From assembly GCA_963804995.1 (NCBI GenBank), contig CAWDSK010000005.1:1024001-1088000 (forward strand): a DNA stretch of 64,000 nt. The letters run 5' to 3'. This DNA comes from an uncultured Acidobacteriota bacterium. GTDB taxonomy: Bacteria > Acidobacteriota > Terriglobia > UBA7540. Position numbers and translations under genes: made by a program. Of this stretch, positions 25,688 to 55,784 are shown piece after piece (positions within the stretch are counted from its first letter, which is position 1; every line of letters begins with the position of its first letter). Below the pieces are notes generated by a model. That model was not told the origin of the DNA and made no database searches. It worked only from the letters and a program-made list of their open reading frames with translations.

Positions 25688-25780
25688 TTCACGAGCTTCG
25701 CGAATTCGCGAAATGACCGGGATTTCGTGATGCATGAGTTCCCGTGTTTTCAGCGGCTTACCAATGGCACTTACGTTGCA
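25688..25780 (+). promoter_or_regulatory. Sigma-54 promoter module 1 (UAS + IHF-like site + -24/-12)
   Basis: TTCACGAG-C-TTCGCGAA-TTCGCGAA at 25688-25712; TGGCAC-ttacg-TTGCA at 25765-25780. Confidence 0.85.
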
Positions 25781-25820
25781 CTATTGAGGACGAGGAGATG
25801 CCGGATCGAGGAGAAAAGCC

Positions 25821-26195
25821 TTGACAGCCACAGAGTCTACCACTACCCAAGATTTAACGATCGACGTCACCCATAGTGAGGGGAGAGCACTCGTTTGCTT
25901 GGGCGGACGGGTCACGGTTGACTCTTCGCCCGACCTACGCCAACAGCTCCATGCGGTACTCAAACGGCAGTTCCTGCCGGCGCTCACGATTGACTTGGCG
26001 GATTTGACTTACATCGACTGCTCGGGGGTTGCAACGCTCATCGAAGCGCTCCGGATCGCGCGCAGCCGCAAGACCCAATTGCAGTTGCGAGGGGTGCGCG
26101 ATGGGCCTCGCCATTTGCTTGAGGCCACGGGGCTTTTGCATCTCTTCGACACAAATGGGGACACGGATCATTCCTCCGTCCCAAAGGTGCCTTGA
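25821..26195 (+). CDS. STAS-domain protein (MlaB/anti-anti-sigma-like)
   Basis: IDLADLTYIDCSGVATL STAS motif; first gene of the Mla-like operon. Confidence 0.85.
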   Translation: MTATESTTTQDLTIDVTHSEGRALVCLGGRVTVDSSPDLRQQLHAVLKRQFLPALTIDLADLTYIDCSGVATLIEALRIARSRKTQLQLRGVRDGPRHLLEATGLLHLFDTNGDTDHSSVPKVP

Positions 26196-26998
26196 TGGCG
26201 AAATTCGTCGAAAGCGTCGGAAAAGATACGCTTAAACGCCTGGACTATATCGGCGGCCTGAGTATTGGACTATGGGCCGCGGTTCGCGCGCTGGGCACAA
26301 CACTGCCTGTCACTGGAAACCGCTATCGCTGGAAAGCTTCCGTAGTTCAAATGCTCGAAATTGGCGTCGAGGCGATCCCTATGGTGGGACTCATGGCGAT
26401 GTGCTGCGGCTTCATCCTCGCCATGCAAGGGGGCTCGGAGTTGCGCCGGTTTGGCGCAATGAGTCTCGTGATCGACCTCGTGGCCGTCGGTTTCACGCGA
26501 GAAATAGGCCCGCTCCTCACGGCCATTGCGGTCAGCGGGAGGTCGGGTGCCGCCATCTCCGCCGAGATCGGGACCATGGTGGTGACCAAAGAGATCGACA
26601 CCCTCAAAGTGATGGCCTTCGAACCGATCGAATTCGTGGTAGCGCCGAAGCTGCTGGGCGCGCTCATCGCCGTGCCTTGCCTTACGGTCGTTTGCAACGT
26701 CTGCGGCATTTTTGCGGGTTGGATCTTCATGTTCTTCAGCACCCATCTGGGTCTGAAGCTCTATATGCATGAGGTGCTCGAATCGCTGGTATTACGCGAT
26801 GTGGTCAGCGGGCTCATCAAGAGCATTGCGTTCGCCGCCATCATCGTCCTCGTGGGTTGTTTGGAAGGATTCCAGGTGCGCGGGGGGCCGGAAGCGGTGG
26901 GCCGGTCGACGACCGCCGCGGTGGTGAAGTCGACCTTCCTGGTGATTGTCGCAGATATGTTCTTCACCGCGATTTTCTACTTTACCGGGAAACACTGA
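26195..26998 (+). CDS. mlaE: MlaE-family ABC permease
   Basis: REIGPLLTAIAVSGRSGAAISAEIGTM, GPEAVGRSTTAAVV. Confidence 0.9.
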   Translation: MAKFVESVGKDTLKRLDYIGGLSIGLWAAVRALGTTLPVTGNRYRWKASVVQMLEIGVEAIPMVGLMAMCCGFILAMQGGSELRRFGAMSLVIDLVAVGFTREIGPLLTAIAVSGRSGAAISAEIGTMVVTKEIDTLKVMAFEPIEFVVAPKLLGALIAVPCLTVVCNVCGIFAGWIFMFFSTHLGLKLYMHEVLESLVLRDVVSGLIKSIAFAAIIVLVGCLEGFQVRGGPEAVGRSTTAAVVKSTFLVIVADMFFTAIFYFTGKH

Positions 26999-27801
26999 TG
27001 TCGATTATCTCGGTTCGCAATCTCGTGGTGGAGTACGGCGGACGCCGGGTGCTGGATGGGCTCCGCCTGGACGTCGAGCCCGGCGAAACGATGGTGTTGC
27101 TCGGGGGCAGCGGGGCGGGCAAGACCACGCTGTTGCGTAACCTGCTGGGGCTCGAGCGCCCGCAATCGGGCAGCGTGGTGGTGAAAGGGGTTGATATCAC
27201 GCGCTGTTCGCCCACGGAACTTAAGCGCGTCCGGCGCTCGATGGGCGTCTCCTTCCAGAGTGCAGCATTGTTCAACTCCCTGACGGTTGAGGACAACGTC
27301 GCATTGGCTCTGCGCGAGCATACGTCACTTGCCCCCTCCATCATCGAGTTGGACGTCTGGATGAAGTTGGCCGCCGTGGGACTGGCAGATTGCGGCAAGC
27401 TCTACCCACAGGAACTGTCCGGCGGCATGAGAAAGCGCGCGTCGGTGGCGCGTGCCCTGGCCCTCGATCCTGAAATCCTGGTGTTTGATGAACCCTCCGC
27501 CGGCCTCGATCCGATTGTGGCGGCGGAGTTGGATGAGCTCATTCTGCTCCTGAAGGAGGCATTCCAGATGACGGTCGTGGTGGTAACTCATGAGCTGCCG
27601 AGCGCCTTCCGAATCGCAGACCGCATCGCCATGCTCTACCAGGGATCGTTTCTCGCGGTAGGAAGGAAAGAAGAGATTAGGGTGAGTCAAGATCCTCACA
27701 TCCGCCAGTTTCTTGATCGCGTGCCCGATACCTTCAAGCCCGCCCACGTGGTGGAATCCTTCTTCGAAAAATACTTGAGCTCTCCGGAGGTGGCGCAGTG
27801 A
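26998..27801 (+). CDS. mlaF: MlaF/Mkl-family ABC ATPase
   Basis: GGSGAGKTT, FQSAALFNSL, LSGGMRKR, DEPSAGLDP; ATG overlaps the mlaE stop. Confidence 0.9.
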   Translation: MSIISVRNLVVEYGGRRVLDGLRLDVEPGETMVLLGGSGAGKTTLLRNLLGLERPQSGSVVVKGVDITRCSPTELKRVRRSMGVSFQSAALFNSLTVEDNVALALREHTSLAPSIIELDVWMKLAAVGLADCGKLYPQELSGGMRKRASVARALALDPEILVFDEPSAGLDPIVAAELDELILLLKEAFQMTVVVVTHELPSAFRIADRIAMLYQGSFLAVGRKEEIRVSQDPHIRQFLDRVPDTFKPAHVVESFFEKYLSSPEVAQ

Positions 27802-28763
27802 CGACAGAAGCCAAGGTCGGAATCTTCGTTCTCGCTTCTCTGGCGCTCCTGGCGTATACGCTTATCCACTTGGTGAACGCGGAGTTCCGAGGCGGGGGCG
27901 TGCCCTATCGCACGTACTTGGGCTATGCCGGGGGACTTGAAGCCGGTAACGATGTGCTGTTCGCAGGCATCACGGCGGGCAAAGTCACGGCGGTGAGGCC
28001 CTGGGCGGCGGATCCGACCCGTATCGAGATTCTTTTGCAACTTAAAAAGGAAATACCTGTGAACGAGAAGTCCGTAGCGAAGCTCGGCTCCATCAGCTTC
28101 ATGAGCGACCCGGCCCTGATGATTAGCCCCGGTAGCAATAAGGTACCCCGGCTCCACGCTGGAGCAGTCATCCCCTCGGCGGAGTCGCCCAGCATGGATG
28201 AACTCACCGGCGAAATAGCTACCGTGGCGGACAACGCCAATGGCCTGATTACGCAGGCCAAGGGGGAGTTGGGCGGAATCAGCGCCGACGCGCGAACACT
28301 CCTTGCCAATCTAAACTCCTTGACTGGCCGGACTAACCAAAAACAGATTGAAACCTTATTAAAGCAAACGAACGGACTCTTGGCCGACGAGCGGCCGAAG
28401 ATCGACCGCATCGCTGACCAAATGTTAGCACTGACGCAGCATGCGGATGCGGTGATGGCGAAGGTTGGGCCGGTGGTCGATCATGCCGACGGCGCCATTC
28501 AGAACGCCAATGCCACCGTCGGCGATCTGCACGAGCCCCTCCGCAAGGATCTTGAGGAGCTTCAGAGCACGTTGAACGAGGCCAGGAGCCTGCTCGCAAC
28601 CATGCAGGTCATCGTCAGGGCCAACGATAATAAACTCGATGACACGGTTGAAAATCTGCGCATCGCTACGGAGAACCTGGACCAACTGACGGATTCGCTC
28701 AAGCAGCGGCCGTGGAGCCTGATTCGTATTAAACAGGACAAGGACCGCAAAGTGCCGCAATAG
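27798..28763 (+). CDS. MCE/MlaD-family protein with long helical C-terminus
   Basis: EAKVGIFV TM anchor; AGGLEAGNDVLFAGITAGKV MCE motif; PWSLI C-terminus. Confidence 0.9.
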   Translation: MTTEAKVGIFVLASLALLAYTLIHLVNAEFRGGGVPYRTYLGYAGGLEAGNDVLFAGITAGKVTAVRPWAADPTRIEILLQLKKEIPVNEKSVAKLGSISFMSDPALMISPGSNKVPRLHAGAVIPSAESPSMDELTGEIATVADNANGLITQAKGELGGISADARTLLANLNSLTGRTNQKQIETLLKQTNGLLADERPKIDRIADQMLALTQHADAVMAKVGPVVDHADGAIQNANATVGDLHEPLRKDLEELQSTLNEARSLLATMQVIVRANDNKLDDTVENLRIATENLDQLTDSLKQRPWSLIRIKQDKDRKVPQ

Positions 28764-28775
28764 GGGAAGCCAAAT

Positions 28776-29405
28776 ATGACTAGACGCCTGACCGCAACTC
28801 TTGCCACGCTCACAATTTCCGCCTGCCTGATTGGCTGCGTCAATAGGACCAGGTTTCCAGCCTATTACACACTGCATGTGCCTCCGGCCATTGACGTGCC
28901 CATCGCGGGAGGAACCCGCTCATCCCTGGCGGTACGTGAATTCCGTTCGCCGGCGTACCTCTGCCAAGGCGCCATTGTCTACCGCACGTCGCCGGAACAG
29001 ATTGGCTTTTATCAGTATCACCGCTGGGCAGTTGACCCGCGCGAGTTTGTGACCAACGCCGTCATCGACCGCCTGCGTGCGACCGGCAGATTCGCCGAGG
29101 TGAGGGCCTACGACGGGCGTTCAGACGTCGATTTCGTCCTCAACGGACGCCTGGAGAAGCTCGAGGAGGAGGACTATGAAGGCGGCGTCAGGGTAGAAGT
29201 CGCGCTTTCCGCGGAGATCACGGACTCGCGTGCCGGTAAGACAGTTTGGACCAACGCCGCGTCAGAGAGCGTGCGGGTAGACAAGCGAAACATACAGGCA
29301 GTGGTAGCCGAGATGAGCCAGGCAATGGACCGCGCGATCCAGAAGCTGGTGGCATCGCTTACAGTTTCCCCTACATCCAGCCTTAATCCTTCCCTCCAGA
29401 AATGA
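28776..29405 (+). CDS. ABC transport auxiliary lipoprotein (PqiC-like)
   Basis: LIGC lipobox; YYTL; YHRWAVDP. Confidence 0.85.
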   Translation: MTRRLTATLATLTISACLIGCVNRTRFPAYYTLHVPPAIDVPIAGGTRSSLAVREFRSPAYLCQGAIVYRTSPEQIGFYQYHRWAVDPREFVTNAVIDRLRATGRFAEVRAYDGRSDVDFVLNGRLEKLEEEDYEGGVRVEVALSAEITDSRAGKTVWTNAASESVRVDKRNIQAVVAEMSQAMDRAIQKLVASLTVSPTSSLNPSLQK

Positions 29406-29471: not shown

Positions 29472-29507
29472 AAAACATAGGTGATGGCCCCCCCTTAGGC
29501 AGCTTAG

Positions 29508-31522
29508 CCGAACTTTCGCACTTCAGGGTGTTGAGTTGGGTTAACTCGCTTCTTTTCAGTACAGGCATTGCCAAGGTCTGGCCTACAAACGCAGCATTCC
29601 AGCAGGAAAGATTTCCGGCTGGACCGTGATCCTGGGCGGTGGCTGAGTGGGGAGCACGAGCTGCAGTTCGTGCAACAGGAGCTTTTGTTCGGGTGTCGGC
29701 TCGGTGTAGCGGGGCATCACTAATCGGCGCCCATCCGTGGTCGGGAAAGACACATCGAGCATCTGCATGCCCGCCAGCTTCTCCAGCACCGCTTTCGGCG
29801 TCAGGCCCGGAGCGTGGGCCTGCAGACGCTGTTTCAGCGTCACCCACAAGCCGTACGCCAGAAAGGCAATGAGGATGTGGGCCTCGACGCGATGTTCTAT
29901 TTGATGATAAATCGGCCGAATTCCCAGCTCACTCTTCAAACACTTAAAGGCCGCTTCGATCTGCGCCAGTTGCATGTAGCGGTCCCACAACACCTCGGGA
30001 TTTTCCCCCGTCAGATTGGTGCGCAACAGATAATGTCCATCGCGCCGCTCCGCTTCCTCCAACTTGCTGCGCTCGAGCCGGAACTGGAAGGTCTGGCGAG
30101 TCACTTCTTCCTGGGCCTTGGGCACGCTGATCTTCACGAAACCGAAGGCCCGTCCGGCTTCACTCTTGGCTGCTCCGATCTTCATCAGCAACGCATCACG
30201 CGTCGGACACACGCGCCGCAAGGCCCGCAGCCTCCACAACAGCCGTGCCAGCTTGCGTCGACGGATGGCCATCTCTTTCGCCTGGCGGCCTGCGCTCTTC
30301 GCCAGCACATACAACTCGCCTTCCTCCGCGAACAGTTTCACCTCTACCGACTCGCGCACCTTCCGCCACGGCAGTTCCGTCCACTTCGCTTCGTACTGCC
30401 GGATCTTGCCCCGTGGCGTCCCCACCAGGTAAAACATCTCCCGCCCCGGGGTGCGCATCTCCGCCAGCAGTTCTTCACTGGGAACTCCCCGATCCATCAT
30501 CCACACCCGCCGTGCCTTGCCGTACACGCTCTCGATCTTGTCCAGAAAACCGCGCAAGCTGTTCCGGTCGGAAGTATTCCCCTCCATCACTTCGTAGGCC
30601 AGCGGGAAACCTTCCGGCGTCAGCACCAGGGCGATCACCACCTGCCGACAGTCGAACCGCCCGTCCCGGCTGTAACCGTGGCGGGCTTTGGGAATCGCTT
30701 CCGCCTCTCCTTCCACATAGGTGCTGGTGAGATCGTAGAGGAGCAGATCAAAGCGCGCCGCAAAGAGGTCTTGCCACCGCAGCCGCAGGTGCTGGAACAA
30801 CTCCGCCTTGTGCGCCAGTATTCGATCCAGACAACGATAGAGCCGGTCCTTCTCGGCCACCGCGAAGTTCACTGCCAGCAACTCGGCCATGGCGGTCTGA
30901 TCGAACCAGTGCCGATGCACACGGAATTCGCTGCCCGGCTCGATCAACCGGTTCACCACCAGCAGCCGTAGCACCTTCTCCCACGGAACTCCCTCGCGCC
31001 CTTCCGGCAACCTCGCCTGCCAGAACTCGTCCAGCTTCAACTGGCGCCACAGCTCGCAGCCCAACCAACAGCCACCGAAGGTGCGCGGCCGCTCAACGCG
31101 CATTTCACTCAACTTCACTTGTACGCCGTCCACAGCATCCGCAGGAAGTTCGCGGTCCTCCGGGAAGAGGCTCAGGGACGCGAGGACGCGACGGTCCTCG
31201 TCAAAAACCTCCAGCGTCTTGCGCCACGCGGATTGTTGGCTGTCGTTGATTTCGCCCAGATACAGCACCGTCCGATGCACGACCTTCGAGCGCGACACGC
31301 GCCGACTCTCGACGATGCTGAAATAACGATGTTCCTTGCCGTCCTTTTTGCGTCGATGAATCTTCAGGTGCACGCCCCAGAATGCCAGACCTTCGCGCCC
31401 CAGAAAAGAGGGTAGGTCGGGCCTACAAGCACTCTTCAACCCGCGCCCATTGAAGGCAAAGACCTTGTGCACCGCAAGCTGCCAAAATCAGCCCGGTAGC
31501 GGGTGGAAGTGCGAAAGGCAGG
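29508..31522 (-). mobile_element. IS1634-like insertion sequence, copy 1 (2015 bp)
   Basis: Ends CCGAACTTTCGCACTTC / GAAGTGCGAAAGGCAGG (imperfect TIR); TTAG on both sides; near-identical to 46441-48456. Confidence 0.92.
29583..31373 (-). CDS. DDE transposase, IS1634-like family
   Basis: LYDLTSTYVEG, GYSRDGR, MDRG, IEAAFKCLKSEL..RPIYH; GTG start chosen. Confidence 0.9.
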   Translation of the reverse strand: MHLKIHRRKKDGKEHRYFSIVESRRVSRSKVVHRTVLYLGEINDSQQSAWRKTLEVFDEDRRVLASLSLFPEDRELPADAVDGVQVKLSEMRVERPRTFGGCWLGCELWRQLKLDEFWQARLPEGREGVPWEKVLRLLVVNRLIEPGSEFRVHRHWFDQTAMAELLAVNFAVAEKDRLYRCLDRILAHKAELFQHLRLRWQDLFAARFDLLLYDLTSTYVEGEAEAIPKARHGYSRDGRFDCRQVVIALVLTPEGFPLAYEVMEGNTSDRNSLRGFLDKIESVYGKARRVWMMDRGVPSEELLAEMRTPGREMFYLVGTPRGKIRQYEAKWTELPWRKVRESVEVKLFAEEGELYVLAKSAGRQAKEMAIRRRKLARLLWRLRALRRVCPTRDALLMKIGAAKSEAGRAFGFVKISVPKAQEEVTRQTFQFRLERSKLEEAERRDGHYLLRTNLTGENPEVLWDRYMQLAQIEAAFKCLKSELGIRPIYHQIEHRVEAHILIAFLAYGLWVTLKQRLQAHAPGLTPKAVLEKLAGMQMLDVSFPTTDGRRLVMPRYTEPTPEQKLLLHELQLVLPTQPPPRITVQPEIFPAGMLRL

Positions 31523-31609
31523 TTAGGAAGAGGTTGGCAGGCATAGGGAACCGAGTGAGTGCTTCCCCTTGAATTCTGATGGCCGCTGCCCACCCGTTGG
31601 CGGCAAGCT

Positions 31610-31702
31610 TTCACGAACTTCGTGAATTCGCGAAGAGATTGCGCGTAGCGGTTGGGCGAAGCCTCCTCTTTTCATGGCTTACCGGTTGGTCCCCGGATTG
31701 CA
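31610..31702 (+). promoter_or_regulatory. Sigma-54 promoter module 2
   Basis: TTCACGAA-C-TTCGTGAA-TTCGCGAA at 31610-31634; TGGTCC-ccgga-TTGCA at 31687-31702. Confidence 0.8.
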
Positions 31703-31758
31703 GTGATGAAGCTGAACTGCGGATGGGAGCAGGGGATAAAACCAAAAGGAGCGAAGCC

Positions 31759-32469
31759 ATGGACAGAATGCTGGTGGTCATCTTTGATTCGGAAACCAAA
31801 GCGTACGAAGGAAGGAAGGCGCTGCATCAGTTGGAAAGCGAGGGGAGTATTGCGATTTACGCCTATGCGGTGATTGGCAAGAATGCCGATGGCACCGTGG
31901 TCGTGAGGCAACTTGATGATCCGGGACCGCTCGGTACGCTGCTGGGAGCTTCACTGGGGAGTTTCATCGGTCTCCTCGGCGGGCCGGTGGGCGTTGCCGT
32001 GGGCGCAATGGCAGGGTCAGCGGTCGGCGGCACGTTAGACCTGGAGAACTCCCGGGTGGGGGTCGATTTCGTTGATGATGTAAAGCAACAACTGCAACCG
32101 AACAAGTTCTCAGTCGTGGCGGAGATTCAAGAGGATTGGACGACCCCCGTCGACAGCCGCATGGAAGCGATCGGCGGGACCGTTTCCCGGCGCGCGCTGT
32201 CCGAAGTAAAACACCAGGTCGATGATGCGGACGTCGCCGCCATGAAAGCCGATCTCGCCCAATTAAAGGCCGAACGCGCCAAGGCGCACGCCGACCGGAA
32301 AGCAAAGCTCCAGGAGAAAATCCACCAGCTCAACTCCAAGATCCAAGCGTGGTTGGAAAAGGCCAAGGAGCGACGCCAGGCGGCGGAGGCCCAGGCGAAA
32401 GCCAAGGTCGAAGTCCTTAAGGCCAAGGCAGCCGCCTTGAAGACCAAGGCGATGGAGACACATAAGTAG
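31759..32469 (+). CDS. DUF1269-like glycine-zipper protein with C-terminal coiled coil, paralog 1
   Basis: MDRMLVV start after AAGGAG; GxxxG hydrophobic hairpin (GLLGGPVG); K/A/Q-rich tail. Confidence 0.85.
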   Translation: MDRMLVVIFDSETKAYEGRKALHQLESEGSIAIYAYAVIGKNADGTVVVRQLDDPGPLGTLLGASLGSFIGLLGGPVGVAVGAMAGSAVGGTLDLENSRVGVDFVDDVKQQLQPNKFSVVAEIQEDWTTPVDSRMEAIGGTVSRRALSEVKHQVDDADVAAMKADLAQLKAERAKAHADRKAKLQEKIHQLNSKIQAWLEKAKERRQAAEAQAKAKVEVLKAKAAALKTKAMETHK

Positions 32470-32588
32470 CACCTGAGGCACTATCGATCGCGTGCTCCAA
32501 CCGGCGTGATTGAAGGGGGATGGCAAATCAGTTGGTAGTGTCCTCTGATGATTCGTTGATACCCTTGACCATCACCCCACATTATTTT

Positions 32589-32682
32589 TTAGCGAACTTT
32601 GTGAATTCGCGAAGGTATTCCGACTCTGCGATGCGCTAATCCCTCCGCTTTGAGGGGCTTGCCATTTGGCGTTTGCATTGCA
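32589..32682 (+). promoter_or_regulatory. Sigma-54 promoter module 3
   Basis: TTAGCGAA-C-TTTGTGAA-TTCGCGAA at 32589-32613; TGGCGT-ttgca-TTGCA at 32667-32682. Confidence 0.82.
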
Positions 32683-32738
32683 TTGAGGAAGCCGAAGGAC
32701 TGTTATGAAGAGTGGAGAAAATGTAAAGGAGCAAGGCC

Positions 32739-33452
32739 ATGGACAGAATGCTGGTGGTTGTCTTTGACTCGGAACCCAAAGCATCCGAAGGAAAGAAGGC
32801 GCTGCAGCAATTGGAAAACGAGGGCAGCATTGTGGTCTACTCCGACGCCGTGGTGTGCAGGCATGCAGATGGCACCACAACGGTGGGGCAAAGGGAAGAC
32901 CCTGGATACCCAGGGATTTTGGTCGGAACCTCGTTGGGAGCCCTCATCGGTCTTCTGGGTGGGCCGCCCGGCTTCGTGATTGGCGCTCTTGCGGGTTTGG
33001 CTGCCGGCGGCACGGTGGACCTGAACAACGCCAGGATCGGGGAGGACTTCATTGAGGACGTGAGACAGCAACTCCTGCCGAACCGGTTTGCACTCGTCGC
33101 GGAGATTCAAGAGGATTGGACAGCCCCCGTCGATAGCCGCATGGAAGCTATCGGCGGAACGGTATTCCGGCGGGCGCTGTCAGCAGTGAAGCACACGGTC
33201 AACGAAGAAGAGATCGCCGCCATTAAAGCCGACCTCGCGCAATTGAAGGCAGAGCATGCCATGGCTCACGCTGAACGGAAGGCCAAGCTCCATGAAAAGA
33301 TCAACCAGCTCGAGTCCAAGATACAGGCGCAGCTCGAAAAATCCAAGCAGCGGCGCCAGGCATCGGACGCCCAGGCCAAAGCCAAGGTTGAGGTCATTAA
33401 GGCCAGGGCCGCCGCGTTGAAAGCCAAGGCGACAGGGACCCCCACCAGTTAG
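32739..33452 (+). CDS. DUF1269-like protein, paralog 2
   Basis: Colinear with paralog 1; AAGGAG RBS. Confidence 0.85.
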   Translation: MDRMLVVVFDSEPKASEGKKALQQLENEGSIVVYSDAVVCRHADGTTTVGQREDPGYPGILVGTSLGALIGLLGGPPGFVIGALAGLAAGGTVDLNNARIGEDFIEDVRQQLLPNRFALVAEIQEDWTAPVDSRMEAIGGTVFRRALSAVKHTVNEEEIAAIKADLAQLKAEHAMAHAERKAKLHEKINQLESKIQAQLEKSKQRRQASDAQAKAKVEVIKARAAALKAKATGTPTS

Positions 33453-33507
33453 CACCCCTCCAGGACTTGCAGCTCAAGCTTTCTCCGCTCAGAAGCCCAG
33501 CTGGGTT

Positions 33508-33601
33508 TTCACGAACTTCGCGAATTCGCGAAAGTATTCCGACTCTGCGATGCGCTAATCCCTCTGTTTTGAGGGGCTTGCCATTTGGCGCTTGCATTGC
33601 A
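33508..33601 (+). promoter_or_regulatory. Sigma-54 promoter module 4
   Basis: TTCACGAA-C-TTCGCGAA-TTCGCGAA at 33508-33532; TGGCGC-ttgca-TTGCA at 33586-33601. Confidence 0.85.
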
Positions 33602-33657
33602 TTGAGGAAGCCGAACGACTGTTATGAAGAGTGGAGAAAATGAAAAGGAGCAATACC

Positions 33658-34371
33658 ATGGACAGAATGCTTGTGGTGGTCTTTGATACGGAAAACAAAG
33701 CCTATGAAGGATGGAAAACGCTTCATCAATTGGAAAGCGAGGGAAGCATCGTAGTCTATGCCTACGCCGTAGTTGCCAAGAATGCAGACGGCACCACAAC
33801 GGTAAAGCAAGGTCAAGATACGGGAGTGGTCGGGACTCTGGTGGGAACCTCACTGGGAGCCCTCATCGGTCTTCTCGGCGGGCCTGCGGGCGTCGTGATT
33901 GGCGCTGGTGTGGGGTTAGTTGCCGGCGGCACGGTGGACATTGACAGAACCAGGGTTGCGCAGGACTTTCTTGAGGATGTGAAAAAGGAACTGCTGCCGA
34001 ACAAGTTCGCAGTGGTCGCGGAGATTAAAGAAGACGAGACCCAGCCGGTGGACACTCGCATGGAAGCGATCGGTGGAACGGTATTTCGCCGGGCGCTGAG
34101 CGAAGTGAAGCACGTGGTGAACGACGAGGAGGTTGCCGCCATGAAAGCCGACCTCGCGCAATTGAAGGCAGAGCACGCCAAGGTACGTGCCGACCGGAAA
34201 GCCAAGCTGCATAAGAAGATCAACCAGCTTGAATCCAAGATCCAGGCTCGGCTGGAGAAGAACAAGCAGCAACGCCAGGCAGCGGAGGCACAGGAAAAGG
34301 CAAAGGTGGAGGTCCTTAAGGCCAAGGCTGCGGCTTTGAAGGCCAAGGCGGCAGGGACCCACACTTCTTAG
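33658..34371 (+). CDS. DUF1269-like protein, paralog 3
   Basis: Colinear with paralog 1; AAGGAG RBS. Confidence 0.85.
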   Translation: MDRMLVVVFDTENKAYEGWKTLHQLESEGSIVVYAYAVVAKNADGTTTVKQGQDTGVVGTLVGTSLGALIGLLGGPAGVVIGAGVGLVAGGTVDIDRTRVAQDFLEDVKKELLPNKFAVVAEIKEDETQPVDTRMEAIGGTVFRRALSEVKHVVNDEEVAAMKADLAQLKAEHAKVRADRKAKLHKKINQLESKIQARLEKNKQQRQAAEAQEKAKVEVLKAKAAALKAKAAGTHTS

Positions 34372-34446
34372 CGCCCCATGTGCTATGGAACTTAGGATTC
34401 AACCGGGGTGGGCAGACTCGCTCCGCTCAAAAATCCAACTTGGGTT

Positions 34447-34540
34447 TTCACGAACTTCGCGAATTCGCGAAAATATTCCGAATCTGTGATGCGCTAATCG
34501 ACCTGTTCTAAAGGGCTTACTAATTGGCTCTTGCATTGCA
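34447..34540 (+). promoter_or_regulatory. Sigma-54 promoter module 5
   Basis: TTCACGAA-C-TTCGCGAA-TTCGCGAA at 34447-34471; TGGCTC-ttgca-TTGCA at 34525-34540. Confidence 0.85.
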
Positions 34541-34596
34541 ATGATGAAACCGAAGGCCTGCTACGACGAGAGGACAAAATGAAAAGGAGCAAAGCC

Positions 34597-35307
34597 ATGG
34601 ATAGAATGCTGGTGGTTACTTTCGATACGGAACCGAAAGCTTACGAAGGAAAGAAAGCGCTTATGCAATTGGAAGGCGAAGGCAGCATCGTAGTTTACGC
34701 CTACGCCGTGGTCGGCAGGAATGCCGATGGCACGACAACCGTAAGGCAAAGTGATGACCCGGGACCGCTCGGGACTCTAGTGGGAACGTCGGTGGGAGCC
34801 CTCATCGGTCTCCTCGGCGGGCCGGTCGGTTTGGCGGTTGGCACTGTTACCGGGATGTTTGCCGGCAGCACGGTGGACATCAACAACGCCAGGATTGGTG
34901 AAGACTTCATTGATGACGTGAAACAGCAACTCCAACCAAACAAGTTCGCCGTGGTGGCGGAGATCCAAGAAGACTGGACGACTCCGGTGGACACTCGCAT
35001 GGAAGCGATCGGGGGAACGGTCATCCGGCGTGCCCTGTCAGAAGTGAAGCAAACGGTTGACAACGAAGACGTCGCCGCCATGAAAGCCGACCTGGCGCAA
35101 ATGAAGGCTGAGCAAGCCAAGGCTCACGCCGACCGGAAAATCAAGCTCCTGGAAAAGATCAACCAGCTTGAGTCCAAGATCCAGGCGCAGCTCGAAAAAT
35201 CCAAGCAGCAGCGCCAGGCTGCGGAGGCCCAGGCGAAGGCCAAAGTCGAGGTCCTTAAGGCCAAGGCCGCGGCGTTGAAGGCCAAGGCGATGGAGACGCA
35301 CAACTAG
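34597..35307 (+). CDS. DUF1269-like protein, paralog 4
   Basis: Colinear with paralog 1; AAGGAG RBS. Confidence 0.85.
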   Translation: MDRMLVVTFDTEPKAYEGKKALMQLEGEGSIVVYAYAVVGRNADGTTTVRQSDDPGPLGTLVGTSVGALIGLLGGPVGLAVGTVTGMFAGSTVDINNARIGEDFIDDVKQQLQPNKFAVVAEIQEDWTTPVDTRMEAIGGTVIRRALSEVKQTVDNEDVAAMKADLAQMKAEQAKAHADRKIKLLEKINQLESKIQAQLEKSKQQRQAAEAQAKAKVEVLKAKAAALKAKAMETHN

Positions 35308-35741
35308 CACCCGGTGCGCTGTTGAACCCTGACTTCAACCAGAGTGGTTGCGGGGGTTGGGCTTCCAACAGGTTCAGCCTTCGTGGCCTGAGGATTTCGT
35401 GTCTGCCCAAGGGGGCATGATCGCGAGATACAAAGGCGACGAAGGCAGAACACGGAGCGCCGCTACCTGGGAGGTGGCTTATGGGGCTGAGAGGCGATGA
35501 CCATAACTTTTGTCCGACCATCCCGCCTTTCAGCATCGCGTTAATTCACTCGAGTGGCATTTTCGCGCACATCCATTGGTCTTAAAGAAGTTCAGCGCTG
35601 ATCCCAAGTCCGCGAGGCCGATTTTAGTTTCGAAAAACGCCTCGGAGGTGTTCTTGCACTGAAGGTGGGAAAAGCGCACCTCAGGATCGGGCTGCCAGGA
35701 GCGACAGGCAGATTCGAAAATATTCAGTATGCGAAGGGAGC

Positions 35742-36329
35742 ATGACAATGACGAAACTTTCTGATGTGTTTATGGCGGGGATAGAAGAAATTAGAAAATC
35801 ATGGGGCTGGTTCCTCGTGTTGGGGATCCTGCTGATGATTCTTGGCGTAGTGTGCATCGGCAAAGCGCAGACTGCAACCACTTTTTCAATCCTGGCGTTG
35901 GGCTGGGTTCTTGCGATCAGCGCGGTGTTCTGGCTCATTGGTTCGTTTCAAGCGCTGGGCTGGGGCGGGTTCTTCATATACCTGCTGAACGCGATCATTC
36001 GCGGAGTGACCGGATACCTCCTGATTCGTCACCCGGACGCCGGCGCGGCAGGGGTGACCATGCTGCTCGCGGTACTCTTCATCGTAGGCGGGCTGTTCCG
36101 CACCGCTGGCGCGAGCGTTATCCGATTCCCTTGGTGGGGGTGGACGGCCTTTGCGGGACTCATCTCCATCGGTCTCGGTGTCTACCTGTTGGCCATTTGG
36201 GCTACCGCGAGCACCTTTTTTATTGGTATCGCCATCGGCGTGGACCTGATCTTCGACTCCGCGGCCCTGATAGCCTTTGCCGCCGCGATTCACAGTTTGC
36301 CTTCGGCGCAAAGCTACAAGGCCGCCTGA
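35742..36329 (+). CDS. HdeD/DUF308-family membrane protein
   Basis: WGWFLVLGILLMILG, about 6 TM helices, IGVDLIF. Confidence 0.85.
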   Translation: MTMTKLSDVFMAGIEEIRKSWGWFLVLGILLMILGVVCIGKAQTATTFSILALGWVLAISAVFWLIGSFQALGWGGFFIYLLNAIIRGVTGYLLIRHPDAGAAGVTMLLAVLFIVGGLFRTAGASVIRFPWWGWTAFAGLISIGLGVYLLAIWATASTFFIGIAIGVDLIFDSAALIAFAAAIHSLPSAQSYKAA

Positions 36330-41989: not shown

Positions 41990-42082
41990 TTATCGAGATT
42001 CGCGAATTCGCGAAGAGATTGCGGCTCTATGGTTCATGTGTCGAAGTGTTTTCAAGCGTTTAGCTTTGGCCTTCGTCTTGCC
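41990..42082 (+). promoter_or_regulatory. Sigma-54 promoter module 7
   Basis: TTCGCGAA-TTCGCGAA ending at 42014 (first unit degenerate); TTTCAAGCGTTTA; TGGCCT-tcgtc-TTGCC at 42067-42082. Confidence 0.82.
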
Positions 42083-42394
42083 CAACCAAAAGGGGAGATC
42101 GAGGAGGACCGCCACAGGCCTGACAAACGTTCACGATCAAATCAATACGCCCGACACTGTGAGCAGAACAATTATGGCAGAGCTGATGGTGATGGATTTC
42201 AAGCAAGACATATGGCGCGCATCGGAGGTGCTCAACCAGTTGCTGGAACTGAACGATGATGCGGGGGGGGACAGGCCAAGGGGGAGAAAGTTCTTTCCGC
42301 TGGTGCCAGGAGAGCGCGTTCATTTCTCGAGCGTGATCAGAACTTCCGGACTTTGGGCCCCGGAGATCCAACCCCTGACACGAAAGAAGCGGCC

Positions 42395-43531
42395 ATGACC
42401 GGAATCCTCAAGCTCGCCTACAAGCTACTCGTCAATGACAAGGCAAAGTTCTCGGCATTGCTGGTCGGCATCACGTTTGCCGTCTATCTCATGATGTTTG
42501 TTACCTCGATGTTCAGCGGGGTCATGAAGCACGCGTCCGCCAACATCATTAACATTGGAGCACCCCTGTGGGTCATGGACCCGTACGTTGAGACCGTGTC
42601 CAACTCAGTCGGCATGCCCGCATACGTCCTGGACGCGGTTCGCAGCATGCAAGGCGTGAAATATGCCGTTCCTCTTTATTCCGGAGGGGCGCTGGTCAAG
42701 CTTCGCGACGGAAACTATCAAACCGTGACTGTCATCGGGTTGGACGACACCAGCCTGTATGGCCGACCCGAACTCATTGCGGGAAAGATCCAGGATATTT
42801 ACGCGGAGAATGGATTCTTCGTGGTGCATGATGCGGAGTTTTCCAAGCTCGAGAATCCCCATATCGGCTCGGAGTTCGAGTTGAATGATAATCGTGGGGT
42901 CATCGTGGGGATCGCCAAGGTGGCGACTTCCGGCTTGTACGGCATCCCGACTCTGTACACGACGTATGAGCGAGCCATCCAATACATTCCTAATCCCCGG
43001 TTCACGATCTCGTACGTACTGGTTGAACCGAAGAGCGCGAGCGACATCCCCCGGATCAAAAAGCAAGTTGAGGCGCTCGGCTACCGCGCAAGAACCAAGG
43101 AAGAGTTTATGCAAAATACCGAGGACTTCTTCCTATACAAGACCGGCGGTGGCACCAACTTGCTCATTATGATGCTGATTAGCTTCACCGTCGGGCTGTC
43201 GCTCTCGGGTCAGACGTTTTACACGTTCATCCTGGAGAACCTGGAACGGTTCGGAGCGCTGAAGGCCATCGGCGCGAAGAGTCGCGACCTTATCGCTATG
43301 ATTCTATTTCAGGCCACGTTTACCGCATTCACCGGCTTTGGCCTGGGGATCGGGCTGTGTCTGCTCTTGATCATCTTCGCCAGGCTAAGGCTTCCCAGCT
43401 ACGCGGCCATGGTTACCTTCGGCAATCTAGCGATTTCGTTTGGAATGGTCGTGGTGATTGCCGCGGTCTCCAGCTATTTCGCGGTCCGACGGGTTCTCAG
43501 AATTGAGCCCTTCGATATTTTCCGAGGATGA
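42395..43531 (+). CDS. ABC exporter permease (FtsX/MacB/DevC-like)
   Basis: N-terminal TM, periplasmic domain, FGALKAIGA, C-terminal TMs. Confidence 0.88.
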   Translation: MTGILKLAYKLLVNDKAKFSALLVGITFAVYLMMFVTSMFSGVMKHASANIINIGAPLWVMDPYVETVSNSVGMPAYVLDAVRSMQGVKYAVPLYSGGALVKLRDGNYQTVTVIGLDDTSLYGRPELIAGKIQDIYAENGFFVVHDAEFSKLENPHIGSEFELNDNRGVIVGIAKVATSGLYGIPTLYTTYERAIQYIPNPRFTISYVLVEPKSASDIPRIKKQVEALGYRARTKEEFMQNTEDFFLYKTGGGTNLLIMMLISFTVGLSLSGQTFYTFILENLERFGALKAIGAKSRDLIAMILFQATFTAFTGFGLGIGLCLLLIIFARLRLPSYAAMVTFGNLAISFGMVVVIAAVSSYFAVRRVLRIEPFDIFRG

Positions 43532-43532
43532 G

Positions 43533-44228
43533 ATGGAGAAAACAGCCATTCAGGCGAACGGACTGGTCAAGTGGTTTGGCGAAGGTGAGGCCAAGACCAT
43601 GGCCCTCCGCGAAGTCAGCCTGGAAGCTCAATTCGGGGAGATGGTTTATGTCGTGGGGCCCTCCGGGAGCGGGAAAACGACCTTGCTCAGCGTTCTCACC
43701 GGCATCCTCAAACCGAATGCTGGCAAGGTCTTGTTGGATGGGACCGACATTTGGGGATTGAATTCCGACCAGCTTGCAGATTTCCGCCTGGGGAGAATCG
43801 GTTTCGTATTTCAGGACTACCACCTCTTCCCCCGCCTGACCACTGCGGAGAATGCAGCGATTCCGCTGATCCTCAAGCGAAAGCCGTGGAATGAAGCCGT
43901 CCACGAAGCAGAGAAGTACCTCGATATCGTGGGACTGAAGAGTCGTGCCGAATTGCCTCCCGTGAAGTTGAGCGGAGGAGAGCAGCAGCGCGTGGCCATC
44001 GCCCGGGCCATGGCCAGCCAGCCGGATATTCTGATTATGGATGAACCGACTGCCTCGTTGGATGGAGACACGGGCGTATCGATTTTGAGTTTCGTCCAGA
44101 AAAACGTCCTCAACCAGGATCGCTGCATTATCGTCGTGACCCACGATGACCGGATTTATCCGTTCGCGACACGGATCTTGAACATGGAAGACGGTCGCCT
44201 GAAGAGGTCAGAAAAGAGTACGGCATGA
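43533..44228 (+). CDS. ABC exporter ATPase (LolD/DevA-like)
   Basis: [30 protein letters not shown]. Confidence 0.92.
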
Positions 44229-45307
44229 AAAATAAGATGATTTTCATCATCTCCTTCATAGGAGCCCTCGGGGGGATTGCAGCCGCAATCCTCTCCGGCA
44301 TTACGGAACCTCCGCTGCCTCCGGCCTACAATCCCGCGGCGAGTCCCTATTCGAACGCCATCTATGCCGAAGGCATTGTGGAGAGCGCACAAACCAGCGG
44401 GGTGAATAGCAACATCTATCCGGAAGTGGCGGGCACGGTCAAAGAAATCCTCGTTTCGGAAGGTCAGCAAGTCAAAGCGGGCCAGCCCCTGCTCCGGATT
44501 GACGATTCGATCCAAAGAGCGACGGCGGAGCAGCAGGGTTCATCGGCCGAGGCTGCCGCGGCGCTCCTGCGAGAACTGAAAGCGGAGCCGAGAAAAGAAA
44601 CCCTCGATGTCGCCGACGCGCAAGTGGTCGCTGCCGAAGCCTCCTTGAAAACCGCCCAGGACACGCTGCAGAAAGATCAAGCGGCTTATGAGGCTGATCC
44701 ACGTTCGGTGAGCAAAGATGCGTTAGACAGTGCCCTCAATGCCGCCGCCGTGGCGAAAGCGAATCTTATAGTTGCCAAAAAGCAGGACGATTTGATCAAG
44801 GCGGGAGCTTGGGTCTACGACATTCAAAATCAGGAACGACAGCAGCACGCATTGGCGAAGGCCTATGCGGCCTCCAGCGCGCTGCTCGGCAAGTATACCT
44901 TGCGAGCACCGCGGGATGGCGTTGTGCTCGCCATCAACACCATCGTCGGGAACTATGTATCCCCACAGGGGTCCTATGACTCCTACACGCAGGGCGCGGA
45001 TCCCGTTATTACCTTGGGGAGTCTGCCGTCCTCTCTCCATGTGCGCTGCTACGTCGATGGAATTCTGGTTCCGAGATTGCGTTTAGGCTCCAAAATGATG
45101 GCGCAAATGTCCATTCGCGGGTCGGATGTCAAGATTCCTTTGGAATTCGTGAGAGTGCAGCCGTATGTGTCACCGAAAATTGAGCTCTCGAATCAACGTC
45201 AGGAGCGCGTGGATGTCCGCGTTCTGCCCGTGATTTTCAAGATCGGGCAGCGCGCGAATGTGAATCTCTATCCCGGTGAGCTGGTGGATGTCTACATCAG
45301 CGAATGA
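44225..45307 (+). CDS. HlyD-family membrane fusion protein
   Basis: Lipoyl-like halves (GTVKEILVSEGQQVKAGQPL; LRAPRDGVV) flanking a helical hairpin. Confidence 0.9.
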   Translation: MKNKMIFIISFIGALGGIAAAILSGITEPPLPPAYNPAASPYSNAIYAEGIVESAQTSGVNSNIYPEVAGTVKEILVSEGQQVKAGQPLLRIDDSIQRATAEQQGSSAEAAAALLRELKAEPRKETLDVADAQVVAAEASLKTAQDTLQKDQAAYEADPRSVSKDALDSALNAAAVAKANLIVAKKQDDLIKAGAWVYDIQNQERQQHALAKAYAASSALLGKYTLRAPRDGVVLAINTIVGNYVSPQGSYDSYTQGADPVITLGSLPSSLHVRCYVDGILVPRLRLGSKMMAQMSIRGSDVKIPLEFVRVQPYVSPKIELSNQRQERVDVRVLPVIFKIGQRANVNLYPGELVDVYISE

Positions 45308-46440
45308 GACCAGACAAGGCAGCGGCCGATTACCCGATTTCCTCGCTAAAGCCGGACGGCCGCGGGGGAAGGTCGAACCTCCACGCCAAGAGACCGATTG
45401 AGAGAGGGACACTACATGGAACGCTACATGAGGATGGGTCAGACTGCTTTGGTAGTCGCGCTCGCCGCGATTTTCCTGCTGGCTACGGGTTGCAGCGTTG
45501 GCCCCAAGTATGTGCGTCCACCGGTCCAGAGCCCGCCGGCCTACAAGGAGATTTCGCGGGGCGCGGCGAACGGATCGGAAATCTGGCGCGCGACTCAGCC
45601 GCGAGACGGCACAAACCGGGGGAACTGGTGGAAGGTCTTCAACGATCCGCAATTGGACGAACTGGAAGTGAAGGCGAGTTCTTCCAACCAGGAAATCGCC
45701 GCGGCGGCAGCCAACTTTCTGGCGGCGCGGGCGCTGGTTCGGGAAGCTCGCTCGCAGTATTTCCCGACCGTCACCGCCAATCCGAGCATCCTCAATTCAC
45801 GGCCCTCGCCAGGACAATTCGGCGGGCTTCAGGCGGGAATGGCCGCGGGGGCCGGGTTGACCGTCAAATCGTACACCGACTATTCGCTGCCTTTTGATGC
45901 CTCATGGGAACCCGATTTCTGGGGACGCGTTCGGAACAGCATGCGGGCCAATGCTTATGCGGCACAGGCTAGCGCCGCGGATCTTCAGAACGTTCGCCTG
46001 AGCGTACAGGCGGAGCTCGCGGCCGATTATTATGAGCTACGCGCCCAGGACGCGCTGAAAGAGCTGTTTGATTCTACCGTCGTTGCCTATCAGGATGCCC
46101 TCAGTCTCACGCGGGCCCAGTACAAGGCGGGCCTCAACTCCGATGAAGCGGTGGCACAGGCTGAGGCTCAGCTAAAATCTGCACAAGCTCAGGACACGAA
46201 CCTGGGAATCCTGCGCGCCCAGTATGAACACGCTATCTCCGTGCTGATTGGCCAACCTGCCTCAACATTCTCCCTGCCGCCGAACGCTTTGGCGGCAAAT
46301 TCGCCCGCAATTCCGGCAGGGATTCCGTCTGAGCTTCTTGAAAGACGCCCGGACATTGCGGCGGCGGAGCGTTCCGTCGCCCAGGCGAACGCGCAAATTG
46401 GGGTGGCTAAAGCTGCCTATTTCCCGGCGATCCTGCTTAG

Positions 46441-48456
46441 CCGAACTTTCGCACTTCAGGGTGTTGAGTTGGGTTAACTCGCTTCTTTTCAGTACAGGCA
46501 TTGCCAAGGTCTGGCCTACAAACGCAGCATTCCAGCAGGAAAGATTTCCGGCTGGACCGTGATCCTGGGCGGTGGCTGAGTGGGGAGCACGAGCTGCAGT
46601 TCGTGCAACAGGAGCTTTTGTTCGGGTGTCGGCTCGGTGTAGCGGGGCATCACTAATCGGCGCCCATCCGTGGTCGGGAAAGACACATCGAGCATCTGCA
46701 TGCCCGCCAGCTTCTCCAGCACCGCTTTCGGCGTCAGGCCCGGAGCGTGGGCCTGCAGACGCTGTTTCAGCGTCACCCACAAGCCGTACGCCAGAAAGGC
46801 AATGAGGATGTGGGCCTCGACGCGATGTTCTATTTGATGATAAATCGGCCGAATTCCCAGCTCACTCTTCAAACACTTAAAGGCCGCTTCGATCTGCGCC
46901 AGTTGCATGTAGCGGTCCCACAACACCTCGGGATTTTCCCCCGTCAGATTGGTGCGCAACAGATAATGTCCATCGCGCCGCTCCGCTTCCTCCAACTTGC
47001 TGCGCTCGAGCCGGAACTGGAAGGTCTGGCGAGTCACTTCTTCCTGGGCCTTGGGCACGCTGATCTTCACGAAACCGAAGGCCCGTCCGGCTTCACTCTT
47101 GGCTGCTCCGATCTTCATCAGCAACGCATCACGCGTCGGACACACGCGCCGCAAGGCCCGCAGCCTCCACAACAGCCGTGCCAGCTTGCGTCGACGGATG
47201 GCCATCTCTTTCGCCTGGCGGCCTGCGCTCTTCGCCAGCACATACAACTCGCCTTCCTCCGCGAACAGTTTCACCTCTACCGACTCGCGCACCTTCCGCC
47301 ACGGCAGTTCCGTCCACTTCGCTTCGTACTGCCGGATCTTGCCCCGTGGCGTCCCCACCAGGTAAAACATCTCCCGCCCCGGGGTGCGCATCTCCGCCAG
47401 CAGTTCTTCACTGGGAACTCCCCGATCCATCATCCACACCCGCCGTGCCTTGCCGTACACGCTCTCGATCTTGTCCAGAAAACCGCGCAAGCTGTTCCGG
47501 TCGGAAGTATTCCCCTCCATCACTTCGTAGGCCAGCGGGAAACCTTCCGGCGTCAGCACCAGGGCGATCACCACCTGCCGACAGTCGAACCGCCCGTCCC
47601 GGCTGTAACCGTGGCGGGCTTTGGGAATCGCTTCCGCCTCTCCTTCCACATAGGTGCTGGTGAGATCGTAGAGGAGCAGATCAAAGCGCGCCGCAAAGAG
47701 GTCTTGCCACCGCAGCCGCAGGTGCTGGAACAACTCCGCCTTGTGCGCCAGTATTCGATCCAGACAACGATAGAGCCGGTCCTTCTCGGCCACCGCGAAG
47801 TTCACTGCCAGCAACTCGGCCATGGCGGTCTGATCGAACCAGTGCCGATGCACACGGAATTCGCTGCCCGGCTCGATCAACCGGTTCACCACCAGCAGCC
47901 GTAGCACCTTCTCCCACGGAACTCCCTCGCGCCCTTCCGGCAACCTCGCCTGCCAGAACTCGTCCAGCTTCAACTGGCGCCACAGCTCGCAGCCCAACCA
48001 ACAGCCACCGAAGGTGCGCGGCCGCTCAACGCGCATTTCACTCAACTTCACTTGTACGCCGTCCACAGCATCCGCAGGAAGTTCGCGGTCCTCCGGGAAG
48101 AGGCTCAGGGACGCGAGGACGCGACGGTCCTCGTCAAAAACCTCCAGCGTCTTGCGCCACGCGGATTGTTGGCTGTCGTTGATTTCGCCCAGATACAGCA
48201 CCGTCCGATGCACGACCTTCGAGCGCGACACGCGCCGACTCTCGAACGATGCTGAAATAACGATGTTCCTTGCCGTCCTTTTTGCGTCGATGAATCTTCA
48301 GGTGCACGCCCCAGAATGCCAGACCTTCGCGCCCCAGAAAAGAGGGTAGGTCGGGCCTACAAGCACTCTTCAACCCGCGCCCATTGAAGGCAAAGACCTT
48401 GTGCACCGCAAGCTGCCAAAATCAGCCCGGTAGCGGGTGGAAGTGCGAAAGGCAGG
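46441..48456 (-). mobile_element. IS1634-like insertion sequence, copy 2 (2016 bp)
   Basis: Same ends as copy 1; removing the IS plus one TTAG restores ATC CTG CTT AGC GCC of the host gene. Confidence 0.93.
46516..48307 (-). pseudogene. IS1634-like transposase with 1-bp insertion near the 5' end
   Basis: CTCGAACGAT at ~48241-48250 versus CTCGACGAT in copy 1. Confidence 0.8.
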
Positions 48457-49105
48457 TTAGCGCCTCCGGGGGATTCGGAAATTCGTCGGCCGCTAACTGG
48501 CTTACCTGGCCAAGCCGCTTTTGGTCAGTGGGTCCCAGTCTCGTCGAAACCATTTTTGACGCCGGATTGCGCAAAGCGACCGTCCAGCAGTACCGCGCCA
48601 CCTACGACCAAACCGTGGCCAACTATCAGCAAACCGTACTAACGGCGTTTCAGCAGGTCGAGGACAACCTCGCGGCCCTCCGAATATTGTCGCAAGGATA
48701 TCGACCAACAGGATGCCGCCGTGCAAGCGGCCGCGCGGAGCCTTCAGGAAGCTGAGGTCCGGTACAAGGCCGGCCTCGATCCTTATCTGAATGTGATCTC
48801 GGCCCAAACCGTTTTGCTGACCGACCAGCAAGTGAAGGTGAATTTTCGCATGCAACAAATGGTGGCGAGCGTTCAGTTGATCAAAGCGCTGGGCGGCGGA
48901 TGGGATTCCTCGCAGATTCCCTCTGAGAAAGAAGTGGGAAGCAAGGCCCAGGATGGACTGAGTGCCAGACGCTAAACCGTTCGCTAACGCTGGGACAGGG
49001 GGTGCGAACTGAACACACCCTGTGTCCGGTCGACACTTCGAAATTGTCGGCGAAGGCTTACCGCTAGCTTCCCAAACACATTTTCGCTGATTGCCACGGG
49101 CCATT

Positions 49106-49198
49106 TTCACGAACTTCGCGAATTCGTGAAGGAATTGTGACCTCCTGATCCGTATACCCCAACGTTTTCAATGGGTTACATGTGGCCTTTGCATTGCA
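49106..49198 (+). promoter_or_regulatory. Sigma-54 promoter module 8
   Basis: TTCACGAA-C-TTCGCGAA-TTCGTGAA at 49106-49130; TTTCAATGGGTTA; TGGCCT-ttgca-TTGCA at 49183-49198. Confidence 0.85.
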
Positions 49199-55783: not shown

Positions 55784-55784
55784 C

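Follow-up and report, generated by a model that had tools for sequence, protein, structure and literature searches.

A 64,000-nucleotide stretch of the genome of an uncultured Acidobacteriota bacterium (C5:1024001-1088000 of a 7.55-Mb assembly that is 92% complete; hereafter the window) carries a repeated intergenic element in which a box of three octamers precedes a sigma-54-type promoter. The repeat amounts to a full sigma-54 promoter unit and occurs nine times in one accessory island. The unit recurs in other Terriglobia, where it lies next to a family of activators whose recognition helix covaries with the box. The nine units very probably make up a conserved regulon under sigma-54 that belongs to an accessory stress island, and two flanking FhlA-related enhancer-binding proteins are the likely readers of the box. 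As judged from the sequence, these activators would jointly induce a set of genes for stress and persistence.

The nine modules are given below in window positions, and L001 denotes the sequence that continues past the end of the window.

25688-25780, plus strand: module 1, before the STAS-MlaE-MlaF-MlaD-PqiC operon.
31610-31702, plus strand: module 2, before DUF1269 gene 1.
32589-32682, plus strand: module 3, before DUF1269 gene 2.
33508-33601, plus strand: module 4, before DUF1269 gene 3.
34447-34540, plus strand: module 5, before DUF1269 gene 4, followed by HdeD (DUF308) and an AI-2E transporter gene.
37949-38041, plus strand: module 6, before two DUF1269 genes, an M50-CBS protease gene (frameshifted), a small coiled-coil protein gene, a TPM remnant and LemA.
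41990-42082, plus strand: module 7, paralogous to module 6, before a 29-codon DUF1269 remnant (42174-42260) and the FtsX/ABC/HlyD/OEP exporter genes (OEP, outer-membrane efflux protein).
49106-49198, plus strand: module 8, before genes for a small coiled-coil protein, a hypothetical protein, HdeD, Dps, Rieske, glutaredoxin, FTR-beta and Rieske proteins.
L001:6577 (C5:1094577), plus strand: module 9, before Pal/OmpA and Hsp20 genes.

A preliminary description of the window had placed boxes at the first eight of these starts. All eight were recovered there, with 1, 1, 4, 0, 0, 1, 4 and 1 mismatches, in order, to the consensus it proposed. Counted from the end of the box, the TGG starts at base 53 or 54, as described, and GG-N10-GC is exact in all eight. 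The count of eight, on the other hand, fell short by one: a ninth copy lies at C5:1094577, about 6.6 kb past the window, and the -24/-12 element (GG-N10-GC) is exactly spaced in all nine modules of the genome. Within each module, the triple-octamer box is followed by an integration host factor (IHF)-like site and then, at a fixed distance, by the -24/-12 element. The IHF-like element starts 17-18 bases 5' of the TGG; when modules of this genome were pooled with those of others, 59 of the 71 fitted the IHF consensus (WATCAR-N4-TTR, PMC2709558) with no more than two mismatches. A weak fourth half-site follows 3' of the box (0.3-0.9 bits per column).

When the whole genome was scanned with up to four mismatches, ten matches were found. 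Nine lie on the plus strand within one 45-kb stretch (C5:1049688-1094577), all with a promoter, while the tenth lies outside the island and has none. In a free-base scan, the variable bases of the box were left open and 979 sigma-54-like sites with an IHF-like element were scored; 14 reached the dyad score, comprising all nine in the island plus five weaker sites, four of which lack the TGG. A box spread through the genome without -24/-12 elements, an outcome the preliminary description had considered, did not emerge from these scans.

The copies do not represent eight independent origins. Four arose with tandem DUF1269 duplications and those at 37949 and 41990 form a pair (leader identity 0.70-0.93), with about five lineages among the copies. 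Between lineages, spacer identity is 0.42-0.64, yet the box, the IHF-like site and the -24/-12 element persist, which bears out the fixed geometry claimed earlier despite spacer divergence. The same duplications would fit a decaying relic, in which the repeats survive from gene duplication and are no longer induced. Two insertion sequence (IS) insertions, three frameshifts, an intron in the second kinase gene, a truncated UbiB gene and TPM and DUF1269 remnants point the same way. We nevertheless consider a relic improbable, since nine modules retain all three elements although their spacers have diverged to about 50%, neither activator gene is broken, and splits or truncations also affect two or more unrelated activator genes in other parts of the assembly, so that some of the island breaks may be assembly errors.

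The core of the box is a 16-base palindrome that folds as a 6-7 pair hairpin, and all copies are co-oriented and intergenic. An RNA hairpin, a terminator or a recombination site between genes could look like this, but the chance that the box is such an element instead of a protein site seems very slim: no box was called as a terminator, Rfam gave no match, and both the fixed -24/-12 distance and the link to helix residues would be left unexplained. Control by FNR/FixK was considered and rejected; one FNR-like site (25487) was not seen in the alignments of loci L004, L050 and L054, and the island gave no PF13545 match.

The sigma-54 reading is in keeping with the gene content of the genome, which has a single rpoN (C9:137647-138120), two genes that best match IHF-beta (110.6 and 84.1 bits; NCBIfam cut-off 115) and intact activators. 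The order of enhancer, IHF-like site and -24/-12 is that of the IHF-dependent sigma-54 promoters nifH, glnHp2, Pu and pspA (PMC2709558). The distance from enhancer to -12 is mostly 100-140 bp according to the same paper, and upstream activating sequences are mostly 100-250 bp upstream in Clostridiales (PMC6615313). Here, unlike in nifH, glnHp2, Pu and pspA, the dyad centre is about 73 bp from the -12, varying by only a few bases across variants.

The preliminary description had proposed a search for the box in related Acidobacteriota. A search with the box alone, in one genome per species, gave 27 loci (25 Acidobacteriota, one Dormiibacterota and one archaeon), and coupling of box and promoter recurred at 23 of them, with YGG-N8-TTGC 50-55 bases 3' of the box (background 0.14% per 6-base window). 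At three further loci the promoter stands at the opposite end of a longer palindromic array, and the archaeal match has no promoter. The pooled loci contain 71 distinct modules from about 23 genomes, one to nine per genome, with a spacing of 50-55. A stricter pattern matched 11 of 400 genomes of the class (ten genuine by eye; G436 was dropped), 7 of 73 of the family and 1 of 7 of the genus, and its reversed control gave no match. A relaxed phylum-wide pattern was abandoned; it matched 42 of 400 other genomes once or twice each, and by eye these matches lacked the box and the IHF-like site and were attributed to chance. The module is patchily distributed and recurs in other Terriglobia.

The two candidate activators each follow a kinase-FixJ-receiver cassette.

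19565-23492, plus strand: PAS/GAF histidine kinase, FixJ-like regulator and stand-alone receiver genes, upstream of activator 1.
23515-24936, plus strand: candidate activator 1, with receiver (REC), AAA+ and helix-turn-helix (HTH) domains; GAFTGA, Walker A/B and R-finger intact; helix PASTLESK; ends 751 bases before module 1.
61799-64000, plus strand: start of the second kinase cassette, broken by a group II intron and running on past the window, where FixJ, REC and candidate activator 2 are followed by module 9.
L001:4916-6394, plus strand: candidate activator 2, REC-AAA+-HTH; motifs intact, including GAFTGA; helix PPSTLESK; ends 182 bases before module 9.

Among the strongest 22 of 29 sigma-54-interaction matches in the genome, the helix G-I-P-X-S-T-L-E-S-K was found in two enhancer-binding proteins, both directly upstream of a box. 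The preliminary description had invoked one activator. That number did not stand, as two candidates share the helix, which the other 20 of the 22 lack. Pfam searches found the receiver, the sigma-54 interaction domain and the Fis-type HTH in both, and the HTH profile aligned weakly to NtrC (1ntc, E 0.06) and ZraR (1ojl, E 0.32). The best named match, and the closest named family for both AAA+ and HTH, is FhlA (NCBIfam NF011958), at 401 and 423 bits against a cut-off of 830 that is not reached. Both activators fall in a 16-row clade (95/97) of box-adjacent activators. Among 80 genomes of the family, the helix region is at least 75% identical in G664, G547, G720 and G668, all four of which have the module, as does G497 (67% identical). 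Plasmid searches with the activator returned only generic relatives (<60% identity), and a protein atlas matched only generic sigma-54 activator clusters.

The helix family was followed through other genomes and metagenomes (187 rows; 170 after those more than 90% alike were dropped). A module was scored when a dyad of TTCR-x-y-AA arms, an IHF-like site and -24/-12 elements occurred within 900 bases. It lies 3' of the activator in 83 of the 170 members, with a gap of 50-53 in 75 of these 83, compared with none of 18 other FhlA-type helices, none of 850 shuffles and 1 of 170 reverse complements. In the protein-selected subset, from which loci picked by the DNA box were left out (n=144), the module stands behind 61 activators. 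A sub-clade of five loci (L131, L144, L146, L147 and L151) has the helix PASTLESR and keeps the CG box at a gap of 60-62, one helical turn longer. In one metagenome pattern scan, 565 of the 611 matches listed were relatives of the activator family.

In the helix P-X1-X2-T-L-X5-S-K, X1 covaries with base y of the arm, and X2/X5 with base x. Among the protein-selected arms, Arg at X1 is accompanied by C in 39 of 40, Ala or Pro by G in 40 of 52, and Gly, Gln or Ser by A in 28 of 30. At X2/X5, S..E goes with C (53/72), T..E with T (9/10), S..D with G (16/32) and Q with G (6/6). Different residues change with different bases, and the box of the window has the Ala/Pro-S-E code, as carried by its two activators. 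X1 aligns with Arg85 of Fis (GINRGTLRKK), which makes the most important base contact of that protein, to guanine (PMC7145599), and Arg at X1 here goes with a C:G pair. In E. coli FhlA the helix reads KRTTLLSR, with R-T at the X1/X2 places, and the FhlA site TG(A/T)C...G(A/T)CA (PMC7658346) fits the GTC of R-T members and thereby the code seen here, though the spacing differs. Unlike FhlA, the two candidate activators score far below the family cut-off, carry a REC domain where FhlA has GAF domains, have the helices PASTLESK and PPSTLESK and another site geometry, and have no hydrogenase targets.

A DNA tree of the AAA+ part covered 66 of the 83 rows, the 17 without the domain being left out. 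Independent pairs were concordant in 5 of 5 (Arg/C, p 0.06), 4.7 of 5, 6.9 of 8 (S..E/C, p 0.016, the only significant result) and 4.8 of 7, and none was opposite. The counts thus support a residue-to-base code well, and independent changes support it only modestly.

Several observations weigh against a regulon read by these activators through such a code. No module was detected within 900 bases of 87 of the 170 family members, and an Arg-type activator (L003) has a CG-type box behind it. A protein tree gave only one to three independent pairs, none significant, and a single Gly-type origin spread by recombination of the helix with its adjacent box was not rejected (p-AU 0.083). Genomes G628 and G572 have the module and no close activator match (both assemblies are fragmented), and both IHF-like genes remain under their NCBIfam cut-off. 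The kinases gave only PAS and GAF domain matches, with no oxygen-sensing domain identified in them. With both kinases interrupted, frameshifts in FixJ 1 and the M50 gene and two IS copies within the island, either part of the circuit may no longer work in this genome or the assembly may contain indel errors. Both activator genes and all nine modules are intact.

The covariation could also be a product of linkage. The sigma-54 promoter would then be real, the activator 3' end and the box would move as a block, and another protein would read the box. The position of the box, mostly 25-50 bases behind the activator stop codon, the unrejected monophyly of the Gly type in the helix region and the small number of independent pairs all fit this explanation. 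It is unlikely, since the code of the two activators, which are the only family members in the genome, is preserved in boxes as far as about 25 kb from either of them, separate residue changes accompany separate base changes, X1 is the equivalent of Fis Arg85, and no other regulator is consistently near the boxes at the mapped loci. Direct reading of the box by the adjacent activator family is the explanation we prefer.

In the protein-selected cases, the first gene behind the module mostly encodes a small STAS-like protein, and a second activator often comes next. The STAS-like protein (90-120 residues) is conserved at L037, L064, L065 and many other loci, and possibly modulates the activator. 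When ten genomes were examined by the free-base scan, activator-assignable non-CG variants were found directly behind their own activator, while CG variants were also found at distant promoters; the multi-promoter regulon therefore seems to be a property of the CG code. In many relatives the activator has no sensor domain, L009:8941-9969 being one natural example. At L010, L025, L027 and L058, an Arg-type sensor activator with a CC box precedes a short sensor-less CG-type activator, which suggests a two-step activator cascade.

The genes behind the modules fall into four groups in the window.

25821-29405, plus strand: STAS, MlaE, MlaF-type ABC, MlaD and PqiC-like lipoprotein genes.
31579-39406, plus strand: six DUF1269 genes, with HdeD and AI-2E genes between them.
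42353-48975, plus strand: FtsX/MacB-like, ABC, HlyD and OEP exporter genes, OEP being broken by an IS at about 46435-48460.
49211-61062, plus strand: HdeD-Dps-redox block, ECF sigma factor, FtsH, rhomboid, Mg P-type ATPase, hypothetical and Usp genes.

Together they comprise an Mla/PqiC-like transporter, two HdeD, AI-2E, M50-CBS, LemA, the ABC exporter, Dps and Rieske/glutaredoxin/FTR genes; Pal, Hsp20, Usp, LigD, glycogen phosphorylase and Zn-dependent alcohol dehydrogenase (Zn-ADH) genes lie 3' of module 9. LigD is encoded there as three separate genes (phosphoesterase, ligase and polymerase; L001:11232-13752), and similar pieces occur behind the boxes of other loci. Strand and spacing suggest that the ECF sigma, FtsH, rhomboid, Mg-ATPase and Usp genes are co-transcribed from module 8. 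Scans for sigma-70 promoters and terminators gave only shuffle-level matches, so the operon ends are not fixed. The proposal that all DUF1269 genes belong to the set agrees with the genome, whose six copies are all in the island; a box immediately precedes five of them, and the sixth is a second gene. For the ABC exporter the proposal needs amending: module 7, which precedes it, is a DUF1269 promoter with a 29-codon DUF1269 remnant behind it, and the OEP gene is split by an IS.

Across 39 loci, the genes behind the boxes include DUF1269 in 25, Usp in 15, HdeD in 12, an M48 protease cluster in 9, a BON cluster in 6 and Hsp20 in 5; because loci overlap, these tallies are not genome counts. DUF1269 is the first gene in at least 28 of 78 promoter records (overlaps included). 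A structural model of one DUF1269 protein (33658-34371; pLDDT 70, pTM 0.46) has an alpha/beta core, with a low-confidence glycine-rich stretch inserted mid-protein and an 80-residue C-terminal helix, and neither Foldseek nor sequence searches gave a match at E <= 0.001.

By analogy, the targets resemble those of low-oxygen and stress islands (DUF1269, HdeD, Dps, Hsp20, Usp and FtsH). The lxa locus of Burkholderia cenocepacia (PMC3721108) and DosR-type sets are likewise clustered regulons of about 50 kb in which a single motif recurs at many intergenic positions (17 in lxa). Usp, alpha-crystallin, Zn protease, cation ATPase, ABC exporter and Zn-ADH genes are shared with lxa (PMC3721108, Table 4), which is also patchy among relatives. 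In contrast, lxa has an Fnr/Anr-like motif (TGA-N6-TCA) and encodes CRP-family regulators within the locus, whereas a PF13545 search found no CRP/FNR gene in the island here and control appears to be by sigma-54. The tLST/LHR (PMC8290217) is likewise an accessory island related to stress, and it too contains genes for Hsp20, FtsH, HdeD, an M48 protease and redox proteins; unlike it, the island here has no ClpG/K, YfdX, KefB or DegP among its annotated proteins, and tLST expression is described as constitutive and not as activator-dependent.

The closest known sigma-54 counterpart is the NmpR regulon of the soil organism Myxococcus xanthus (PMC11841059), which also has a receiver-domain sigma-54 activator, a multi-component phosphorelay, paired dyad sites at several promoters, Usp and CBS targets and a proposed response to oxygen limitation. 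The NmpR site differs (GCGCA-N5-TGCGC with a spacing of 14-15 bases, compared with abutting TTCGCGAA octamers here), NmpU needs heme while the kinases here gave PAS/GAF matches only, and in the island the activator is FhlA-related and the targets are DUF1269, HdeD, Dps and Mla genes.

The inducing signal is the weakest step of our interpretation. Oxygen or energy limitation approaches an even chance, and a signal of some other kind is rather improbable. A response to envelope or general stress like that of the tLST, instead of oxygen or energy limitation, deserves serious consideration while falling short of an even chance. The first genes mostly encode membrane or envelope proteins, with DUF1269 first in the 28 or more promoter records noted above, and HdeD, the Mla-like transporter, M48, M50 and rhomboid proteases, Pal, LemA, Dps and LigD are present, while the tLST carries Hsp20, FtsH, HdeD, M48 protease and Cls (PMC8290217). 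On the other hand, Usp lies behind the boxes at 15 of the 39 loci, BON, Mg-ATPase, Zn-ADH and exporter genes match the lxa and DosR-type sets (PMC3721108), and ClpG/K, YfdX and KefB of the tLST were not among the annotated proteins.

The remaining features of the island are as follows.

18537-18766, plus strand: tRNA-Lys(CTT) (18537-18612) and a degenerate partial copy, the likely left border of the accessory island.
29501-31525 and 46435-48460: two IS copies with a DDE transposase, the second splitting the OEP gene.
62362-64000 and L001:1-320: group II intron inside the second sensor kinase gene (Rfam RF02003 at 62388-62525).

The island probably begins directly after the tRNA-Lys and its degenerate copy, the latter being a likely integration scar. 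In five congeners the flank is common up to the tRNA-Lys and the sequence beyond differs, except that one congener has a kinase/FixJ piece at another place. No GC anomaly marking the island was found. Its IS copies are 2 of 19 near-identical copies in the genome. The two halves of kinase 2 join across the intron when aligned to an intact relative, and kinase 1, FixJ 1 and the M50 gene each have a one-base frameshift in the assembly, these breaks lying near 21658, 22451 and 39848. Outside the island, a REP-like element of 60-75 bases (17617-17690) has dozens of copies in congeners, some in tandem arrays. On the minus strand (12688-15009) lie EgtD-like methyltransferase and EgtB-like genes, which we take to belong to the ergothioneine pathway, and an osmoprotectant-type ABC transporter adjoins them.

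As a mechanism, we propose that a PAS/GAF kinase phosphorylates the receiver domain of the activator; where a paralog that has a sensor domain and a variant box of its own lies just upstream, as at several loci, this would become a cascade. Dimers of the activator would then occupy the TTCG-x-y-AA arms, whose centre is about 86 bases 5' of the predicted start, and helix residue X1 would read base y while X2/X5 would read base x. Starts are predicted about 12-13 bases past the GC, which for modules 1 to 8 places them near 25791, 31713, 32693, 33612, 34551, 38052, 42093 and 49209. IHF would bend the unusually short spacer, and the AAA+ domain would then open the sigma-54 complex.

The preliminary description did not recognize a described regulon, and the literature searched, in which most subscription journals were not covered, likewise held no description of the box, the regulon or a helix-base code for such activators. 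A TTCGCGAA match in PMC5874634 proved to be a primer, and the main text of PMC12316311 mentions neither Acidobacteria nor DUF1269. The type of regulon, with sigma-54, an enhancer, IHF and stress targets as with NmpR, is already known; the patchily spread variant is new.

A broader picture, on which we are evenly balanced, is that soil Acidobacteria hold an expanded family of sigma-54 activators, each with an enhancer variant directly behind its gene. The result would be a natural library: with three helix residues setting two bases of each half-site, paralogs would not interfere with one another and could be linked into cascades. The Ala/Pro-Ser-Glu to TTCGCGAA code would have been recruited, by copying of a promoter unit of about 95 bases, to run a mobile persistence island, with sigma-54 taking the role that DosR, Anr/lxa or SigB have in other organisms. 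The regulation of Acidobacteriota, an abundant group in soils, is poorly known; the present analysis provides a regulon together with its sites, its likely activators and a predicted code that relates residues to bases, and ties the uncharacterized DUF1269 proteins to a stress program. If the code is true, binding sites would be predictable for many uncharacterized activators of the family, and the code would show how paralogous activators avoid cross-talk.

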